Under the pieces are notes generated by a model. The model saw only the letters and a program-made list of their open reading frames with translations, was not told the origin of the DNA and searched no databases. Position numbers and translations under genes: made by a program. A DNA stretch of 64,000 nt from Octopus vulgaris. Lineage: Eukaryota. Within the stretch, counting starts at the first letter, position 1. Each line of letters opens with the position of its first letter. This document shows, piece after piece, positions 1,215-56,700 of this stretch. The stretch is taken from the NCBI GenBank assembly GCA_951406725.2, contig OX597815.1, positions 121,644,001-121,708,000 of the forward strand, read 5' to 3'.

Positions 1215-2334
1215 CGTATATATATATTCTTTCTTGTATTTCCTTCTCAAACTGGCCAGAAAGCAAAATTGTCAAATTGTAATCTCAGCATTTTGAAGAT
1301 TGATTTCATTTTATTAACTGCAAAATTTTACTGTTGATAAAATTTTTGCTTTTTAAAAATACATGAAATAGTAAAGATACTGGGAGATTATGTAAAAAGA
1401 AATATGATTTATATTAAAGAATGTATTTATCAATTTTCATTTAATATTTACTTTTACTGTTATCTTTATTTAAAAAATCAATATATTTTTTTAAAAGAGA
1501 AAATAACACTGTTCATACAGCTTCCTGTTATTCTGAATGTGTTTATTTTTTTATATATTATATCTTATAAAAAAATCTAGTATTTAATTATTTGTATGGA
1601 TATTCCTAAGATATTAATTCACTGCAGTTGATGGGATTTTTTTATTGATTTTCTAATACTTATTAATGCTGTTGGTATCAGGGATAACAAAATTATGTAA
1701 CACATCTTACCATAAAGGAATTAATATTTCTGTATAAATATATATATATATATAGCTTTGCTTTAAAATAATTTTTGTCCTAAAACCATACAGGAGAGAG
1801 GGCATACATATTTGATAACTAATTTTAATCTAAATGCAGCTTAACATGTCTGGTGAAGTTAATGACACATGCTTGCTGGTCACATATCAAGTCTATACTT
1901 TTGAATCATTAACTCTAAGTATATATACATATATATTTGTTATCTACTGAGGGAAGATGTGAAGCCATAATTGCACCTTAACTGAGTGAGACCTATCCGA
2001 TATTCCCTCAAAGTTGTGCATGAGCATGATTACACAGTCACTATATTAGTATCATGCAACATCAAAATGTTGCTGTACATTTTAATTTATGACCTTGTTT
2101 TGATAAACTGTGTGGAAGTTTGAATGCTATACACTAGTTTTGAATTTAAAATATTTTTGCTCAAAATATCAAAAGTTCTGCTCAGAGGTAACATTGGACT
2201 TGTTTATAACAAAATTGTATTTGTTCAGTTGTTAGACCCCTATACATTCTTAAGTCTTTGATGTCCAAATTATTTTAGACTGAGACTTAATATATCAATA
2301 TCTAAAGAGTCATAGGCTTGTATTATTTTGGGTA

Positions 2335-2535
2335 ACTGTCAGTGCATTGGACAAAATGCTTAGCGGTATTTCTTACGGCTCTTTACATTCTGAGTTCAAA
2401 TCCAACTGAGGTCAACTTTGCCTTTCTTCCCCTGGAGATAAATAAAGTATCAGTCAAGAACTATAATCAAGGTAAAAGGCTTACTTCTCCCCTCAAAATT
2501 GCTAGCTTTATGCCAAAAATTATAAAGAATTATTT
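2335..2535 (+). mobile_element. SINE family B copy (head ggcggcgagctggcagaatcgttagca..., (ATT)n tail). Other copies: ~12290-12430+, 18390-18570-, 18600-18790-, 19255-19445-, 26560-26660-, 26700-26890-, 27215-27400-, 39100-39310-, 43570-43760+, 59940-60142-
   Basis: Recurrent ~220-bp repeat with B-box-like GAGTTCAAAT and shared core gtcgactttgcctttcatcc; boundaries approximate. Confidence 0.8.
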
Positions 2536-3044
2536 GGGGAAGAATATAGAAATACTATTTTATTGTTTTCAGCTAGTTGGCAGTAACCATACTGAGCCAT
2601 GTAAATAAAATTTACTGGCACTATCTTTACTTTCTCAATGAAAATAAAATCATTTCACAAAAAAAAAAAATAGGTGCCTGTATATTATTAAAATATATTA
2701 TATAGATGCAATCTAGTGGACATTGTGAATAATTTCTTTTGTAGTAAGTTCCACTTTTTATATGTGCATTTAAGGCACATATCTCATTGCTATGCAACAT
2801 TACAGATCCAAACATTAGGGAATAGTAGCTCCATGATCTTTCCCAACCTGTTTATACTTTCAGAACAATTGACACCCTGCTAATTACATCTCTTAGGTAA
2901 TAAAAGCTATCAATTACTTCTAGTGAGCCATCAAGGTATTTAAGAGAATTTCGTTAAGAAAATAAGACATATAATTTTAAAATTTAGAAGCTGAAATATT
3001 TTTTAACAAACTAATTCTTCCTTTCATTTTCTTTGCAATTCCAG

Positions 3045-3101
3045 AAACTGAATACTGCTTTGCATTACGCATCTTCATCAGGTCTGAAAAATTGTGTTGA
3101 G
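3045..3101 (+). CDS. ANKIB1: ANKIB1 exon (ankyrin repeat) KLNTALHYASSSGLKNCVE
   Basis: Polypyrimidine tract plus ccag acceptor; gtaagg donor; 57 nt, phase 0/0; ankyrin T-x-LHYA motif. Confidence 0.9.
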
Positions 3102-4569
3102 GTAAGGTTTTAATTTAAAATTTTCTTTGGAATATCTCATTTTTATCCTTATGCATCTGACGGCCAAATTTCATGGTCTAAGTCATTTCTTATTTAGAGT
3201 TACTGCCCCGCTAGACATAGTTGAGGGGCTACATCTTGCTTCTATATGTTATTTTAGCACTGTTTGTTCACAATGGCTGAATGGATTAACACCAACCATT
3301 TACAGAGTGTTCTAGGTGCGTTTCATTGTGACACCAGCGGTACTAGTACTAAAGATGTCATTTCTATCTCCTGCATTGTCTCCATTCATTTATCATTGTC
3401 ATCATCACCATTATCATCATTTAATGTCCATATTACATGCTGCATGGTTCAGATGGTTTGACAGGATACATTGGGTCCAAGGACTGCATTGTGATCCAGT
3501 ATCTTCTTTGGCATGGTTTGTATGGTTAGATACCCTTTCTAATGTCAACCACTTCACAGGGTGTACTGGGTACTCCTTTCATTGTACCAGTACTAGTGAC
3601 ATCACCATACAGCTTACAAGCCTAAGATTCCCTTTGACTGAGTGGAGCTACAATAGAAAGGGAGATTTCTTTATGCCAGGAGATGAAGGAATAAAGGATG
3701 AGAGAAGGGACCACAACAGGACTGGTTTCTTGCTGTAGAGAAGCTACATAGCTACTCACATTATAGAAGAGAAGGTGGGACATACCAAGGTGGAGCTGAA
3801 AAGGAATAAAAATTGTAGGATAAGGTGTCAGGGTGAACCCTGAAGATACAAGATCAGTAGAAGTGAGTGTGGGTAGGTTGGGATTGTGTTAGTATAAGAG
3901 AAAGATGGTTAGTAATGGTGAAGGGGCGAATGTTAAGGAAGAACAAGTGTTGAGGGATAATAAGTAGATAAGATGAAGAAAAGTAGGTGACGACTCTAGA
4001 AATTGAATAGGGTTGAGGGCTGGATGTAGTGAATGGTTGATAAGGTTTCTCTGCATGTGTGTAGTGTGTATGATTAAATTGAATTAAACACTGAAGTTAA
4101 TTACTCAGAACTGTTATTCACATGAAGACCATCAATTAAATAGAGAAGAAAATATTAGCAACTGATTGAAATACTTGTTTTGAAATGCAGTGAGGAGAGA
4201 TCATTGTCTTAGTGCCCATTATTGTGTTAATCCTTTTGGTAAAGTTGTGGGCAAAAATTGTAGATATGTTTTGATATTATTAGACCTCATTAGTTAAATT
4301 AGTGCTAATATATTTAATGAAGTGAGCATTGAAAGTCTAATTAGAAATAATTAAGTCAGTGAAGAGGAGACAACATATATCTTAATTACTAATGTTATTT
4401 GGATCATTTCGGAAAATGTGGAGGATAATTCCAGATCTGTTTTGGTCTTGCTTAATGTAATCAGCAAACCGGACTTGCCAAAGTGGTAATTGGAGAATTG
4501 CTAAATAGGTATGAGCGTGCATATATATAAATATGTACATGCTTATGTATATTCATATACATGTATGTA

Positions 4570-15419: not shown

Positions 15420-15793
15420 GCAGGAGTGGCTGTGTGGTAAGTAGCTTGCTTCCCAACCACATGGTTCCAGGTTCATTCCCACTGCGTGGCACCTTGGGCA
15501 AATGTCTTCTACTATAGCCTTGGGCCGACCAAAGCCTTATGAGTGGATTTGGTAGACGGAAACTGAAAGAAGCCTGTCGTATATATGTATGTGTGTGTGT
15601 CTGTGTTTGTCCTCCCAGTATCGCTTGACAACCAATGGTAGTGTGTTTACATCCCCATAACTTAGCTGTTCGGCAAAAGAGACTGATAGAATTAGTACTA
15701 GGCTTCCAAATTATAAGTCCTGGGGTCAATTTGCTCGACTACAGGCAGTGCTCCAGCATGGCCGCAGTCAAATGACTGAAACAAGTAAAAGAG
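15420..15793 (+). mobile_element. SINE family A, well-preserved copy. Other copies: 13610-14355+, 21275-21658-, 22905-23265+, 28105-28470+, 28540-28910+, 31490-32290-, 32300-32525+, 36035-36365+, 38070-38455-, 39790-40020-, 44035-44335+
   Basis: A box TGGCTGTGTGG, B box GGTTCATTCC, internal microsatellite, 3' end ...gactgaaacaagtaaaagag; many dispersed copies in both orientations. Confidence 0.88.
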
Positions 15794-15817
15794 TATATAT
15801 ATATATATATATATATA

Positions 15818-16145
15818 ACAACATAAGGGACTAAAGCCATCTGAATATGGTTAGGGACAGGGCCGACACCGTCACGGTGCCCTAAACCTGCAAAGGGAGG
15901 TAATTCCCCGATGAAGCGGAGGCCTACCACACGCCGATGATAGGCAATACACCTTGAAACCATGGTCCGTGTGTGGTTTCCGCTTCATCGGGGAATTACC
16001 TCCCTTTGCAGGTTTAGGGCACCGTGACGGTGTCGAGCCTTTCTGGTGACGTCGATGTTCGCCTGGGGCTAAATGCAACAGTAACACCCCCACCACCCTG
16101 CCCTGTCCCTAACCATATTCAGATGGCTTTAGTCCCTTATGTTGT
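15818..16145 (+). mobile_element. 328-bp foldback element (A-B-loop-B'-C-A'), Penelope pseudo-LTR/retrozyme-like, next to a (TA)n tract
   Basis: Perfect inverted pairs 15818-15863/16100-16145 (46 bp) and 15864-15920/15979-16035 (57 bp); GC-richer than the flanks; hammerhead motif in the loop. Confidence 0.75.
15928..15973 (+). ncRNA. Minimal type I hammerhead ribozyme motif (variant core)
   Basis: cacacg-CCGAUGA-U-AGG-caauaca-CCU-U-GAAA-CCAUGG-UC-cgugug: 6-bp helix I, 3-bp helix II, palindromic helix III (ACCAUGGU), predicted GUC cleavage after 15967. C replaces the canonical U4. Confidence 0.72.
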
Positions 16146-16820
16146 CGAGCAGTTACTGTCTATATTCCTTTTAGAGAATTATTATTGCTATATATATATA
16201 TATAAAAATCAAATCACAATCAAAAATGGAAATTGTAGTTGTGGCTGTTGCTAGTGCTGCTTGACTGGCTCTCATTCTGGTGGCACGCAATAAGCACTAT
16301 TCATGTGTGGGTCATTGCCAGTGCTGCCTGACTGTCTCCCCGTGCAGGTGGCATGTAAAAACCACCATCCGAACATGGTCAATACCAGCCCCACCCCACC
16401 CCACCCCACCCTGACTGACTCCTGTGTGGGTAGCATATAAAAAGCACCATCCAAATGTGGCTAATGCCAGTGCCACCTGACTGGCTTCTGTGCCAGTGAC
16501 ACATAAAGAGCACCTACTACACTCTCAGAATGGTTGGTGTTAGGAAGGACATCCAGCTGTAGCAACATTGTCAGATCAGATTGGATCCCGGTGCAGCTTC
16601 CTGGCTTGCCAGTCCCCAGTCAAACCGTTCAACCCATGCCAGCATAGAAAATGGATGTTAAATGATGATGATGATGATGATGATGATAATGAGGATGATG
16701 ATGATATACATATATTATATTACAGAAAATAAAGTAAATCTCAAATGCAGAATAGCTGTGAATACAGCTTAGAAAATTGGGCAAGTACTTTTAAAAGATA
16801 GGGTGGGGAGTGACCAGGAT

Positions 16821-24500: not shown

Positions 24501-25926
24501 CCCCTTGTAGCTAGAAACATTAATAGCTCCCTCAAATTTTTCCAACCTATCCTTGAACTCTGGCCTCCTATGATTATTAGGTTACCAAGGTAGCAAATTC
24601 TATGAACTACTAATATGGCTTTCTCCATGCATTTGAAAGAATATTTCATAGTTCTCATACTGTTAGATACTCCTGTGCATTAGTACATACATATTCTTTG
24701 TTAGCCTGTCTGAATGCTGCTATCATCCCATACACACTTTTTCCCAAAGTTGTCATTATTTACAATCACATACTGTTGTGAAATTCAGAACACTTTGCAT
24801 TTCTGTTGGCACATCCCTGACTTTCCATATCTCTTTGCTACACGTAACTGTAAACTACTTGATATTGTTCCTTGTTTCCTCTTTCTTCCAGGCCTGGCTC
24901 TTAGCAGTTAATACTGTATCTCCCCTATGTCCCTTTCTATTCACTAGAGAAGCTGTTCCATCCCATCATCATCATTTAACATCTGCTTTCCATGTTGGCA
25001 TGGTTTGGACTGAGTACTAGCAATCCAGAAGGCTGCACCAGGCTCCAATCTGATCTGGTAAGGTTTCTACAGCTAGATGCCCTTCCTAATGCCAACCACT
25101 CCAAGAGTGTAGTGGGTGTATTTTACATGCCTCTGGCATGAGGGCTAGTCAGGCTGTACTGGCATCGACCATGTTTAAGCGGTGGTTTCTACGTGCCAGC
25201 AGCATGGGAGCCAGTCAGGCAGTACTGACAACAACCACGCTTGGATGGTGCTTTTTATGTGCCACCGGCATGGGAATCAGTCAGGCGGCACTGGCAACGA
25301 CCACACTCAAATGGTGCTTTTTACATGCCACCAGCATGAGAGCCAGTCAGGCAGCATTATATATTAATTTTTATTTGAAACCACTTTTGCCCTCCCAGTA
25401 AAGCAACCTGTGATACAGGTTGCAAAGTCCATACTTTCCTTTTGGCATGATCATATAGTGGTTGTCTTCATGACAATTATCTATAACACCCCTCCATAAT
25501 AATATGATTGCTTAGTGTGACTGAAATACAGTAATTTTTATAGTCATCAAAGTTTGTTTCCAAGATTTGTTACTAGTTTAGGGACACTTAGTTGGAATTG
25601 AAGTTGTCTTCATAATTTATAGAGGATTGTGGTAGTTGCCAAGCTATTTATTCTACAAGAGTTATCTCTACAGGAAGTTCTCTACATTATGGTGCTAATG
25701 GAAGATTCCATTAATGAGGTTGGGTTTATTTTAGTTGCCTATGATGATGTCAGGAGTACTGGCTGTCAGGCCATGGTGATGTAGGCAGGTGTTCCAACAG
25801 GCAACTGTAGGGAAACTTTTGCACTATCTCTCACTTATAACAGAAATTACAGGAATTATAGGAATAACAGAAATTATAGGAATACATAGAATCATCTTAT
25901 CAGTCTCTTTTTATCCATAGTAAATA

Positions 25927-49959: not shown

Positions 49960-52140
49960 AATGTCTGCTTTCTATGCTGGCATGGGTTGGATGATTTGAC
50001 TGAGGACTGGCAAGCCAGGCAGCTGCACCAGGCTCCAATCTGATCTGGCAAGATTTCTACAGCTGGATGCCCTTCCTAATGCCAACAACTCCAAGAGTAT
50101 AGTAGGTGCTTTTTATGTGCTACCAGCACGGGTGGCAGTTGGCAGCACTGGCATCAGCAACACTCAAATGATGCTTTTTACGTGTCACCAGCACAGGTAC
50201 CAGTCAGGCATCACTGGCATTGGCTACACTGGAATGGTGCTTTTTACATGTCACCGGCACGGATGCCTGTCAGGCAGCACTGGCATTGGCCACACTCAAA
50301 TGGTGCTTTATACATGCAAGCAGTATGGGTGCCAGTCAGGTGACATTGACGTTGGCCACAACTACAATTTCACTTGACTCAACAAGTCTTCTCAAGTATA
50401 GCAGAATGCCAGACAATTGAAGGGTACTTTTAAACGGGCCGGTTATATGACACTGGCATCAGCTATGGCTATGATCCCACTTGGCTTGCCGGGTTTTCTC
50501 AAGCACAGCATATCTCCAAAGGTCTTGGTCACTTGTCATTGCCTCTGTGAGGCCCAACATTCAAAGATCATGCTTCACCACCTCATCCCATGTCTTCCTT
50601 GGTCTACCTCTTCCACAGGTTCCTTCCATTGTTAGGGTGACACGTCTTCACACAGCTGTCCTCATCCATATGCAACACATGACCATACCAGCACAGTAGT
50701 CTCTCTTGCACACCATATCTGAGGTTTCTTATATCCAACTTTTCTCTCAATGCACTTACATTCTGTCATGTATGCACACTGACATTACACATCTAGCTTC
50801 ATTTCTTTCAAGCCTGCATACATCCTCAGCAGTTACAGTCTATGTCTTACTGCTGTTCACTCATATGCATCATACAGTCTACCTTTCACTCTAAGCAAGA
50901 GGCCCTTTGTTACCAGCAGAGGTAGGAGCTCTCTGAACTTTGCCCAGACTATTCTTATTCTAGCAGCTGCTTTCTCAGAGCATCCACCCCGCTACTGACT
51001 TGGTTACCTAGGTAACAGAAGCTATCAATTACTTCCAGTTTTTCCCACTGGCATTTGTTGGAATCTGTTTTCTGTACATCTTTGGTGTTTATTGCTGCTG
51101 TGCAACTGCCACACAAAAGACTATCTTCCCAGTTAACCTTCCTTTGATATTACTGCATCTCTTATGTGTCCATAGCTTAATCAAGTACATCTTATGGAGT
51201 TTCTACCTATGCTTTTTCTACAGATTGAGCAGGACCATTTTCCCAAAGGGATTTGAGATTTGCCTGCCTTCGTACTTATTAAGACTTTGGTTTTAGCTAG
51301 GTTGACTCTCAGCCATTTGATTCTAATCCTTGCTTCCACACCTGAAACTTTTCCTCTAATTCTGATAGTGACTCAGCAATTAGAGCAAAGTCATCAGCAT
51401 AGAGGAGCTCCCAGGGCCATCCTGTCTTGAATTCCTCCGTTATTGCCTGGAGGACTATGATAAGAGGGGGCTGAGGACTAGTCCTTGGTGGACCCCTACT
51501 CAGAATTCTTCACTGTACTCGTTGCCAACCCTCACCTTACTGACAGCATCCCTGTACATGGCTTGTACAGCTTTCACAAACCATTCATCTATCTCTAGTT
51601 TCCTCATTGACCACCAGATAAGGGATCGGGGGACCCTGTCAAAGGTTTCCTCCATGTCAATGAAAGCCAGGTACAGAGATTTATCTTTGGCTAGGTATTT
51701 CTCTTGCAGCTGTCTTACCAGAAATATAGCATCAGTGGTGCTTTTCCCTGGCACAAACCCAAACTGCATCTCATCTAGACTGACTCTCTCCTAATTAGTT
51801 TGGCTAGACCCTCTCCATGACCTTCATTACCTGATCCAACAACTTGATACCCCTGTAATTATTTATATCTAATGCATCATCTTTACCTCTGTAGCAGTTG
51901 ACTATGGTGCTGCTACACCAGTCATTGACTCCTTGTATCACCTGGTTAACCTGGTTAACTATACGGTCGACTAGGCTATAGCCAACATCACCTGATACTT
52001 TAAGCATCTCTGCGGTGATTCCTGATGGGCCAGGGGCTTTCCCTGTCTTCATACTCTTAATTGCTTTATCTACCTAGGTACTGTCAATTTGGATAGCTGG
52101 CACCTCTGTTGGGTTGACATTGGGCAGACTCTCTTTCTCG
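49960..52140 (-). mobile_element. 5'-truncated RTE-clade LINE with decayed reverse transcriptase and 3' UTR containing ~60-65-bp tandem units
   Basis: KAPGPSGITAEMLK, NYRGIKLL, QFGFVPGKSTTDAIF, AFID..FDRVP, VGVHQG and WELLYADD (YADD at 51390-51401); stops and frameshifts. Confidence 0.92.
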
Positions 52141-52547: not shown

Positions 52548-53534
52548 GGTTTGTTTGTAGATTCTTATTTATATTAAGATGGCAGTAAAGGCATAATGTT
52601 TACTGAGAAAATCTGTAATTTTTACATCTTTCTTCAACCCCACTTCATGCACGCACACACACACACACAATTATTTTTCTTTAAGTAGCTATATAAAAAT
52701 TATTTAGAGAATTGGTTTGTTTGCTACCTGTCAAGATTTTTCTGAGTTTTACATCTAATAAAGTTTACATTCCTAATATTGTTAATAAGCAAGTAAACCA
52801 AGATTGAAAATAAGCTGCCCCCCTCCATCTTTTTCTTTCTCTCTTCTTACCATCCTCTCTCTTTTCTCTTTCCCTTCATATATGCATGACTGTGTGTGTG
52901 TGTGTGTGTGCATGGTGTGTACATATATTTACATACATACACATTCACATACACAGTGCAGTCTCTATATATGAACATAATCTGTTCCAGAGATTAACCA
53001 AATTATTCATTATGTGAGTTATTGAAATACATATAAATAAGGATAGTTCATTCCAGGCTACACTCAAACACCACATAAAGACCTGAAATGATGTTTTATT
53101 TGTCCATCCATCAATAGAAAATACATAAATGTAGATTTGTGTGTGTGTGTGTGTTTTAAGCGAAAAATAAGAGAAATATTATTTTCCATGAAAATTTTTG
53201 AGATGGCATGCATACATGGATGTTAATGAACTGTTTGTACATGCTCTTTCAGCCACTTATATGTGTATGTGTGAACCACTCTTGGTTTTTTGTTCAAATT
53301 TTAGCTGATTGAACATAATTTTCTTCAGAAAAGTGGTTTACATTACAATTTGTTTCCCCCAGCATTTATACACATGCAAAACCTACTCACAGTTTCTTAT
53401 TCAAATTCCAGCACAATATGCAAGTTTAATTTTCTTTAGAAAATTCATTCATTATTCAATTTGTTCATTTAGGGCATTTTTTATCTATAGACCCCTTTTG
53501 ATTAAGTGATTATATGTTGTTAACTTAATGTGAT

Positions 53535-53715
53535 AGTCCCATGAAAGGGAAGAATGCTACTGTTATTTAGCCCTAGGAAACACTGTTTCCTGTTGTACTT
53601 GACACATTTCCTGTGTCCTTATGTTTTCAAAGTGGAGACAAGTACCTCCACCCAGCAAAACCAGCATCCAGAGACTAGTTTCAGAGTCATTGCTCATCAT
53701 CAGTCCGGAGTAGCA
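53535..53715 (-). mobile_element. Non-coding hammerhead-bearing element, distant relative of 15818-16145
   Basis: Same order of parts in the sense (minus) strand: HHR, hairpin, hairpin, RGGGCTAAAT..ACAGTARCA; ends not defined. Confidence 0.65.
53667..53709 (-). ncRNA. Minimal type I hammerhead ribozyme motif
   Basis: uccgga-CUGAUGA-U-GAG-caauga-CUC-U-GAAA-CUAG-UC-ucugga: 6-bp helix I (one GU), palindromic ACUAGU helix III, GUC triplet. Confidence 0.75.
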
Positions 53716-56700
53716 TAGCTTGCTAGCTGTCGATGCCTATCCGCCTTTGGAAACAAATATATTTCAAGTGAAATACATTCACTGATTTTTGAAAATAGAA
53801 ATAATACTGCATAAATCTCTCTGAGAGATTTAGAAATATATTATTTCCCTTTTGATTACTATTTTATTCTGGTGAACCTCCATAGCCGTTCAGTGTGTTT
53901 AAATGAGTTTTATATATTCTTCTTTGGAAATTTCTGTTTTGTTTTTCACATATTAACTTGTGCAGTCTGAACTATGTAAAACATTAGAGAAAGAAACCTA
54001 ACTGTTTCTTACTGTAAATAATTCTAAAGCAGAATGTTTTCAGGAACTCTTAAAATACTACTGTGGATCTTCAGTTTGTTGTTTTGCTTGTGTGAACCCC
54101 CAAAAATCTTATATGGACCACAGATGATAACCACTGATTTAGAGGTCTGTTTGCATCTGGGAACCCTGCTATATATATGTGTGTGTGTATTTGAAATGTA
54201 ATTTTTGGATAACTGGAATAATTCTGTATTAGATTATCACTATCCTCTAATATACTTTTAATAAGTAAAAGCTATAAATCACAGTTAAAAATCATTAAAA
54301 ACCGATTCCCGTAGCTTGCTTTGTTTTTATCGTAAATCACTGCCAACCAGTGGTTTGTAAGTAACTCATTGATCCACTTAAATAATAGTTTATTTGTTAT
54401 GTTTTGATTTATTCAAGTGAATTACAGTGCAGAGCAGTTACCCATAACAGAGTTCTACTTTTGTAAATTAGATAGGATCTAATGACTTATTGATCTTGAA
54501 GATAACATTCAAAGATTAACAGTCGCCTGTTTCTAGGCAAAACGATTCAATAACCATATAAATGAAGCATTGGAAAAGAAAATGTAATTGAGGAGAGGGT
54601 GATATGGAAGTCAATTACTGGACTATTAGAGATCACGAGGGTTAATATCTTATCAATAACAGAGATGAAAGTGCTTGCTAAAAAGAACAACGAGCTTTAT
54701 ATTGTGTTGAAAGTTTGATTCCATTCTTGTACAAGAGTGTTAAATTACAACTCATTATTGAAAATACTGTAGAAATCTGTGACCATTTTAAATAATGTAT
54801 TTTGTATTAAGTTTAGTTAATGACGTTCTTAACAGTGACTAACCTTTGTAAGGTTTACAGTTATTTATTAAGGAATATAGTTTCATTCCTATGGTTTGCT
54901 GTTTTCTTTTCCTTAACAAATTTCTCTCCTGTCTCTTCTCAATATTTTATTTTTAAATATCATCCTTTTTTCGGTTTCTGTAGTGGTATGTTTCAGTATG
55001 TTACATAAACATTGCTTATCCAACAATTAACAATTACTAAACTATTTATCGTATCATTTATTTCATGAGATCTGTTATTAATACTTTTTAAAGCTTCAAA
55101 GCATGGAAAAGAATATTTTCTGATGATAGATTATGGATATTAGTAGGTACTGCTGTTATAAAAATTTAGTACTAGAACTTAGAGGCTAAATTATGTATTT
55201 TTTCATAAAATATTATCTTTCTTTTACTTTTCTGATCTCACCTTTTACATTTCTCCCTATCATATATTTGCAGATGAAACTTCTCTTTTTATCTTTTTGT
55301 GTTGTGTTTTACACACAAGTACATCACTAGTTTATTTGTCTAGGAAAGTTTAATGATATATATATATTGATGTTTTCAGGTAGAAATACTAAATGAATTA
55401 CAAATGCTATCATGAACAATTGATAGTTTAGATTAGATAGATTTGTATATGTTGCCATCAACCTGTTCTGCTACATAATTGCTTAAAGAATCTGATATTG
55501 CAGTTCATAGTCTTTGAACCTTCACTAGCTGCAGTGTTCTACATTAAAATGTTGCTAGGCTATTTGTTCAAAGGCCACTGTATTTCTTTGTATCTACAGT
55601 GTAGTATTGATATTTAATATTCTAGGGTTGTATCGATAATACTATACTATGCATAATATTGATTTAGCTCATTACTTTCCTTAAAATTTGGTGAAATAAT
55701 ATTCAGTATGCTTATCATATAGAGAGAGCTCACTTTGATTTGCACCTAAATTTCAATAGTATTTATTTGAAATTAGATTTAAACCCTTTTTCCTATTCAA
55801 AAGTAAAATACACAAAATATTTTTAGATTGTAATTCTTCATTTTAATGTTGTTGCTTCAAGGAGTGGAAAAAAACGAGAGAACAGAAAGTAAACTTGTTG
55901 AGTACCTTGTAGTTGCAATTTTTTACTTTCTTATTCATTTGACTGTCACTGGTTTTGAATACTTCATGTATAAAAGTGATTAGTTCAGAGAATAATTAAC
56001 TCTATTCATACTCCACTTATGAACAGTGTTTGCTTTTGTATATATGATTCTGGTAGTATTCCCAGTTTTCATCTTGTGAAGAAAATGTTATGATAATTGG
56101 TTAGCATTCAATAACAAAAACTGTAAAACTACTAAATTACATCTTGAAAGGAGATGAAAAAACCCAGTTTTAATGAAATATAAAATAAGTGGTTTAACTA
56201 TGATTTTAAAAACTTTTATTCAGTACTTGTATATAAAGTAAGGTGCCTGAAAAGAAGACATGGATTTTGAGAATGTTGGGAAACCTAATCAGCAAAAATA
56301 TAATCTATTTGTAAATTAATCAAAATGGGAAATAGTGTTATGAATTTAAGAAAAAAATGGAATATGTACAGTTAATATTGATTTTAAAAGTGAAGTGTTT
56401 TATCATTCAACTTTAGATATTAATTGAATATGAACTGATAGTTTTGAAAAATGTTTATGAAACTATTGAAATCTAATAGATATGTACCAAACATGAATGT
56501 GTACTTTTATAATAAAAAGAAGAAAAAACTAAAGAAAATTATGATCTTTTAGCATCTATTGATATTCTGTGACCTGTAAGAAACATTTAGTTAACTCTTT
56601 CATGTTGAATTCTATTATATTTCATACCTGCTCATATTATATAATTTGACATAGTAATTATGTTATTTGGCAGCAAATTTTTAGTCAGATCTTTAGATTT

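Follow-up and report, generated by a model that had tools for sequence, protein, structure and literature searches.

The window, a 64,000-nt stretch of Octopus vulgaris contig OX597815.1 (assembly GCA_951406725.2, positions 121,644,001 to 121,708,000, forward strand), has only two stop-to-stop frames of at least 150 aa and carries two short non-coding elements, A and B, each with a type I hammerhead (Table 1). On re-reading the sequence of both elements, we found every position given in an earlier note to match, including those of hairpin 1 and of the motif common to the two. The hammerheads also have the features ascribed to them there: a helix II of AGG/CCU in A and GAG/CUC in B, a loop beginning CAAU, a U·U at 10.1-11.1, the helix III palindromes ACCAUGGU (A) and ACUAGU (B), and GUC sites. 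Position 4 of the core of hammerhead A is C (CCGAUGA), a feature absent from that description. Two points needed adjustment. The motif had been placed after hairpin 2; both are present, but CCURGGGCU forms the 3' side of hairpin 2 itself and does not lie downstream of it. The two elements, described as low in sequence identity, are nevertheless alignable homologues, with 128 of 227 columns identical (56%) and an alignment score of 115, compared with 39±10 (maximum 62) in 300 shuffles. The motif occurred twice in the 64-kb window and in none of 100 shuffles.

Table 1 Features of the two elements in the window (positions are those of the 64,000-nt stretch)
Feature	Position	Strand	Description
Element B	53505..53846	-	Single copy with two insertion ends, from an older ~350-nt retrozyme subfamily; the main arm lies on - and a short inverted arm on +
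Target-site duplication, left, 12 bp	53493..53504	+	Exact direct repeat flanking B
Target-site duplication, right, 12 bp	53847..53858	+	Exact direct repeat flanking B
Type I hammerhead, B	53667..53709	-	
Hammerhead B, helix I	53704-53709/53667-53672	-	
Hammerhead B, core CUGAUGA	53697-53703	-	
Hammerhead B, helix II with U·U	53683-53696	-	
Hammerhead B, GAAA-palindromic helix III-GUC	53673-53682	-	
Hammerhead B, predicted cut	between 53673 and 53672	-	
Upstream hairpin, B	53767..53783	-	Compensatory changes in 10 subfamily rows; missing from the truncated window copy of A
Spacer hairpin, B	53632..53651	-	Between hammerhead and hairpin 1; similar ones seen by eye in A and H
Hairpin 1, B	53601..53617	-	
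Hairpin 2, B	53569..53600	-	3' strand is CCURGGGCU of the motif; outer stem partly decayed in the window copy
Shared motif, B	53555..53577	-	CAGUARC forms the 5' side of the long-range helix closing the domain with T1
Two inner module hairpins, B	53518..53550	-	53537-53550 and 53518-53535 (second decayed in the window copy)
End site T1, B	53505..53513	-	Insertion end; putative RT start 1
Short inverted arm, B	53806..53846	+	Stops at T2 ('tail' end; putative RT start 2); includes terminal hairpin
Element A	15818..16189	+	Truncated copy with two ends, belonging to a young 360-nt retrozyme subfamily; lies in (TA)n
Element A, arms			Inverted arm 15818-15920 stops at T1; main arm stops at T2 (16189)
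Type I hammerhead, A	15928..15973	+	Core CCGAUGA (U4C), helix III ACCAUGGU and a U·U at 10.1-11.1; cleavage predicted after 15967
Module in A	16018..16189	+	Hairpin 1 16018-16034, hairpin 2 16035-16070, motif 16062-16086
Module in A, 3' part		+	Inner hairpin 16110-16128, T1 ~16145, long-range helix 3' strand 16152-16158, T2 16189

Directly 5' of element A lies a SINE-like tail ending in (TA)n (15700-15795), which recurs in many sampled loci and which we take to be of SINE type. A dispersed 66-bp tandem repeat family is also present in the window, at 25181-25356, 50105-50340 and about 16240-16490.

Across the whole 2.8-Gb genome, a relaxed form of the motif gave 8,667 matches, compared with none in the reversed control, and a pattern leaving out A and B still gave 374. 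The sampled loci comprise at least nine subfamilies, labelled here A, B, C, D, E, F, G, H, I and J, which are 48-86% identical over the 3' module (48-68% between main clades). In the subfamilies compared, 94-101 nt separate the hammerhead from the motif downstream of it; the linkage of the two that had been proposed from the window copies also holds in sister subfamilies. Head-to-tail arrays of non-coding units were found in A, H, I, C and E, with a period of 351-360 nt and about 24 units in one array. Element A matched 40 of 40 scored genome places at 100% identity, many of them spaced 360 nt, and its 34-nt core has 817 exact genome copies; judged by these copies, A is a young, expanding tandem repeat inserted in (TA)n. 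For element B, the best 40 of 2,398 candidates were 93-97% identical over the queried part, and the genome holds 188 cores of the B pattern. No uninterrupted B dimer was seen among these loci, the window copy being a monomer. Two B dimers are broken by foreign inserts of 1.5-2.5 kb (L193:1800-4260; L194:1145-2610), which by eye look like pieces of a LINE ORF1 with zinc knuckles.

At the level of sequence, A and B are thus genomic copies of one ~350-nt non-coding, hammerhead-bearing superfamily of non-LTR retrozymes. It has the properties of a metazoan non-LTR retrozyme that can be tested on genomic DNA: a type I hammerhead in each unit across subfamilies, a short non-coding tandem unit within 150-450 nt, and dispersed retro-insertion without coding capacity, seen as target-site duplications (TSDs), inverted ends and no linked ORF of a Penelope-like element (PLE). 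In sequencing runs, 390-nt contigs from two runs fit a 360-nt loop, although tandem DNA or a circle would look alike there, and family A is matched by contigs from runs of four organisms, one run each, their ends, strand and circularity not being readable. Among database holders of retrozyme sequence, none is on record as RNA.

We then compared the ends of individual insertions. Two sites account for them: T1, just past the inner hairpin, and T2, beyond it by 44 nt in A and by about 55 nt in B. All 15 distinct two-ended A insertions had one end exactly at T2, and the other was at T1 in 13 of them and 12 or 27 nt short in 2; 8 one-ended or incompletely covered insertions were left out of this count. 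Among 37 B loci, 12 were left out on the same grounds, and 23 of the 25 two-ended insertions had one T1 and one T2 end, the exceptions being L026 with two T1 ends and L210 with two T2-like ends. Subfamilies D, E, F, I and J, with duplicate loci merged, obeyed the one-T1-plus-one-T2 rule in 10 of 13 interpretable rows; 20 G2 rows, for which the query held (TA)n, were not counted. Target duplications, mostly of 11-14 bp, were present at 16 of the 25 B insertions, compared with 2.3% of mixed-flank controls, some of the matches being low-complexity (L010, L018, L208) or partly element sequence (L209). Among the loci read, target type seemed to differ between subfamilies, with (TA)n at the ends of A, G and H and mostly ordinary AT-rich DNA around B, D, I and J. 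This differing preference may reflect different PLE partners over time.

PLE insertions are recognised by an inverted pLTR, a one-sided tail and a TSD of 8-10 bp (PMC3846280; also PMC8557442; both cited in part), and in vitro the PLE tail is the stretch between two adjacent RT starts, both target strands being cut and extended (PMC11167929, in part). The retrozyme insertions have inverted arms with a one-sided tail, together with short TSDs in AT-rich or (TA)n targets. In looking for an autonomous partner in the same genome, we scored 150 of 6,136 candidates from a GIY-YIG search and obtained four PLE families, P1-P4. Two are intact for RT plus GIY-YIG: P1, with a 781-aa frame, and P2, of which 138 of 141 scored copies were 100% identical over the queried part; P3 and P4 are broken. 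The intact PLEs, which have many near-identical copies, end in (TA)n like family A. Each of the seven two-ended P2 insertions had one T1 and one T2 end, and so had 2 of 3 P1 insertions. The T1-T2 spacing, about 30 nt in P2 and 40 nt in P1, differs from that of A and B; this counts against the link to PLEs, as does the P1 exception to the rule. The footprint of the retrozymes matches that of resident P2, in line with the Penelope-type system suggested before.

An autonomous Penelope ending in the module, the partner that the earlier note proposed to look for, was not found in the sampled families P1-P4. Neither the module nor the upstream block left a sequence trace in their ends by blastn or nhmmer, and no terminal sequence common to the superfamily and any of P1-P4 was found. 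PLE coding sequence joined to the module was found neither in 141 sequences (140 loci and the window) nor in 20 further loci, and the retrozymes have no RT plus GIY-YIG ORF between pLTRs, as an autonomous EN+ PLE has. No retrozyme-PLE chimera was seen in the 160 loci, and the neighbours that we read (L100, L157, L176, L168) are separated by (TA)n or host DNA. Several candidates were set aside: module matches in PLE loci L079, L087 and L091 are separate retrozyme insertions (L079 by strand and position only); two pairs of B hammerheads on one strand, spaced 1.6 and 2.8 kb, are interrupted dimers with no PLE coding match; and a weak likeness by eye of the P1 end to the module was not significant. 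The scoring covered 150 of the 6,136 endonuclease candidates, and the partner may be a PLE outside these four families.

We consider it probable, from the insertion footprint, that A and B belong to a retrozyme superfamily which ends at two fixed sites in a covarying module and is copied in trans by a Penelope-like RT/endonuclease. In a chain of steps that we infer from PMC7229834 and PMC11167929, arrays would be transcribed and the hammerheads would cut as dimers via the palindromic helix III, releasing monomers that a host ligase would circularise. The PLE protein would bind the folded module and cut both target strands about 12 nt apart; priming of one strand at T1 and of the other at T2 would yield the inverted arms, and copying round the circle would yield tandem arrays. 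The copy at 53.6 kb, a lone and partly decayed monomer, is predicted to cleave poorly alone.

The earlier note had read the architecture of the two elements as conserved under selection. Compensatory changes across subfamilies bear this out, over a module that is larger than was claimed, with statistics that ignore relatedness. Given 14 subfamily representatives, RNAalifold returned, unprompted, a long-range helix between CAGUARC of the motif and a downstream GYUACUG, whose variable pair is A-U in 8 cells, G-C in 5 and broken in 1. In a five-helix model of the module, 88.5% of cells were paired, compared with 27-48% in slid controls, and 7 of 26 pairs had double changes. For the upstream hairpin and hammerhead, 91.9% of cells were paired and 15 of 19 pairs had double changes; in these models, much of the unit beyond the module appears to be structured. 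We regard the covariation support as good and not as a formal test, because the controls ignore relatedness and the helices that were counted had been modelled on these very sequences; independent changes per module pair are also few.

What the module does is a separate matter. Since it was not found in the four sampled PLE families, its role in RT recognition is one that we infer, and we set that role about level with a function in RNA stability or host binding. A more specific form, which we offer tentatively, is a structure-only landing signal: the non-coding RNA circle may parasitise a Penelope-like RT/endonuclease without any common terminal sequence, a dimer priming at T1 and T2. If true, the module would be the first defined cis-element for retrozyme mobilisation. 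Rather unlikely, though the strongest of the competing accounts, is that the elements are PLE-mobilised while the module serves another RNA task, for example stabilising or ligating the circle, binding a host protein or evading silencing; the RT would then be unspecific, and T1 and T2 would come from A/U-rich pairing with the target. It would accommodate resident PLE ends that have no sequence in common with the module, covarying helices outside the module, short matches between the ends and (TA)n flanks, and a target type that differs by subfamily over a constant module. It fits poorly with ends that fall at the same two structural positions in main clades 48-68% alike, including outside microsatellites, and with the most invariant module bases lying near those ends.

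The same end structure is that of PLE pLTRs, and other PLE families may exist beyond the 150 of 6,136 GIY-YIG candidates scored; the copies could on these grounds be truncated solo pLTRs of an autonomous PLE outside the sampled families. We hold this to be improbable: A, H, I, C and E form head-to-tail non-coding arrays, T2 reads on into the next unit and not into an ORF, and no PLE ORF is joined to a copy of the module in the 141 sequences and 20 further loci.

We next turned to the hammerhead itself, whose U10.1·U11.1 with a 3-bp helix II had been taken to define a variant class. The U·U is not decay, because it is the majority state in both A (817 exact cores) and B. By hand count, the 100 listed of the 188 B-type cores comprise 66 U·U, 15 A-U, 8 C·A, 4 G·U, 3 U·C, 2 C·U and 2 U-A. 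The U·U is also present in one G1 copy and in PLE P2. Yet sister subfamilies with the same module differ at this position: G-C in H, I and J, A·G in D and A·A in C/E-type copies, besides the A-U and C·A of B-type cores. In a 10-row alignment, 10.1-11.1 was standard in 3 of 10 rows, whereas 28 of the 30 cells of the next three pairs up the helix were standard. The U·U subfamilies are scattered among non-U·U ones on a 60-segment tree, for which bootstrap is rough. The pair was also already described for axolotl HHR_Amex2 (PMC7229834, in part) and in PMC3088659 (in part). Because it varies by subfamily, is scattered on the tree and is already published, we reject the class, which we think very improbable; the ribozyme variant itself is not new.

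Other core positions vary in a similar way, and the subfamilies form a natural series of hammerhead core variants. C3-G8 and U3-A8 are swapped among them, a change known from schistosome PLEs (PMC4209133, in part), and helix III palindromes of five different sequences occur in the 60-segment set, with a sixth in B. The pLTR hammerheads of P1-P3 (L081:278-312; L238:4463-4497; L123/L124 about 4075-4140) have non-standard cores as well, with U3-A8 in P1 and P3 and, as in A, C4 plus U·U in P2; their helix III is palindromic (decayed in L123). Rfam gave no hammerhead in the window at E<=1 and none in A or B at E<=10, and its Hammerhead_1 model detected the sister subfamily H, which has G-C, with 32.2 bits (E 7.8e-6), below the gathering score of 34. 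Rfam matches to miRNAs and snoRNAs were microsatellites, inverted arms or short chance matches. Within A, an older subfamily (L157, L172, L099/L100) has UUGAUGA or UUGACGA and young A (L031-L060) has CCGAUGA, having gained U4C; this change is reported to lower cleavage in vitro (PMC3088659, in part).

Satellite DNA arising by unequal crossing-over, with an incidental hammerhead-like sequence, would produce long near-identical tandem arrays, but is scarcely credible given that copies are dispersed, have inverted arms, end at fixed sites and are flanked by target duplications, and given RNA-type compensatory changes that include the C3-G8/U3-A8 core swap.

Among known systems, the metazoan non-LTR retrozymes of Cervera & de la Peña 2020 (PMC7229834, in part) resemble the octopus superfamily in their ~350-nt non-coding tandem units and type I hammerhead. 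Closest there are the mussel repeats of 350-390 bp and axolotl Rtz_353/HHR_Amex2, whose hammerhead resembles that of family A in its 2-bp helix III capped by a tetraloop and in the U·U mismatch that forms the base of helix II; monomeric HHR_Amex2 cleaved to 22% in 1 h, and dimers cleaved better. The part of that paper used here describes no conserved non-ribozyme module or fixed ends, whereas the octopus has at least nine subfamilies with a common covarying fold and a varying core (C3-G8/U3-A8, U4C). Our literature search, with most subscription papers, Repbase and supplements outside its scope, found no report of cephalopod retrozymes and no conserved non-ribozyme retrozyme module. As for the hammerhead, U10.1·U11.1, U4C, U3-A8 and a palindromic helix III are all known from core-variant ribozymes (Perreault et al. 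2011, PMC3088659; Cervera & de la Peña 2014, PMC4209133; both in part); what differs here is that the core variants alternate among sister subfamilies and recur in resident PLEs.

EN+ PLEs (PMC3846280, PMC8557442 and PMC11167929, each in part) are like the retrozymes in their inverted arms, one-sided tail, short TSD, (TA)n or AT-rich targets and two RT starts 3' of a hammerhead. The retrozymes differ from them in having no ORF, a tail of 44-55 nt as against 30-40 nt, and putative start sites in a multi-helix module that is common to several families. That animal retrozymes depend on PLEs is also the conclusion of Li, Clavereau & Pollet 2026 (10.64898/2026.07.22.740005, in part), whose case is built on co-distribution and on homology to pLTRs (of 57 Xenopus families, 24 matched known elements); our basis is the insertion footprint, and we detected no pLTR homology to the resident PLEs. 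For the genomic re-copying of animal retrozymes, PLE dependence has so far been argued from co-occurrence and pLTR similarity. The footprint described here is direct, in that the two-site end rule holds for retrozyme insertions and for a resident PLE alike. A young retrozyme subfamily coexists with PLEs of which at least two families are both intact and young. This makes the partner and the cis-signal testable with an in vitro assay that exists for a lizard PLE (PMC11167929, in part).

Finally, the frames of two resident PLEs deserve mention. In P1, an upstream frame of 479 aa overlaps the RT-EN frame (L084:268-1704 and 1626-3968; L081 about 1750-1770). The overlap holds six T followed by A, which we take to have the form of a -1 frameshift site. 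A similar two-frame overlap is present in P3 (L123, L124); canonical EN+ PLEs are single-ORF (PMC8557442, in part).
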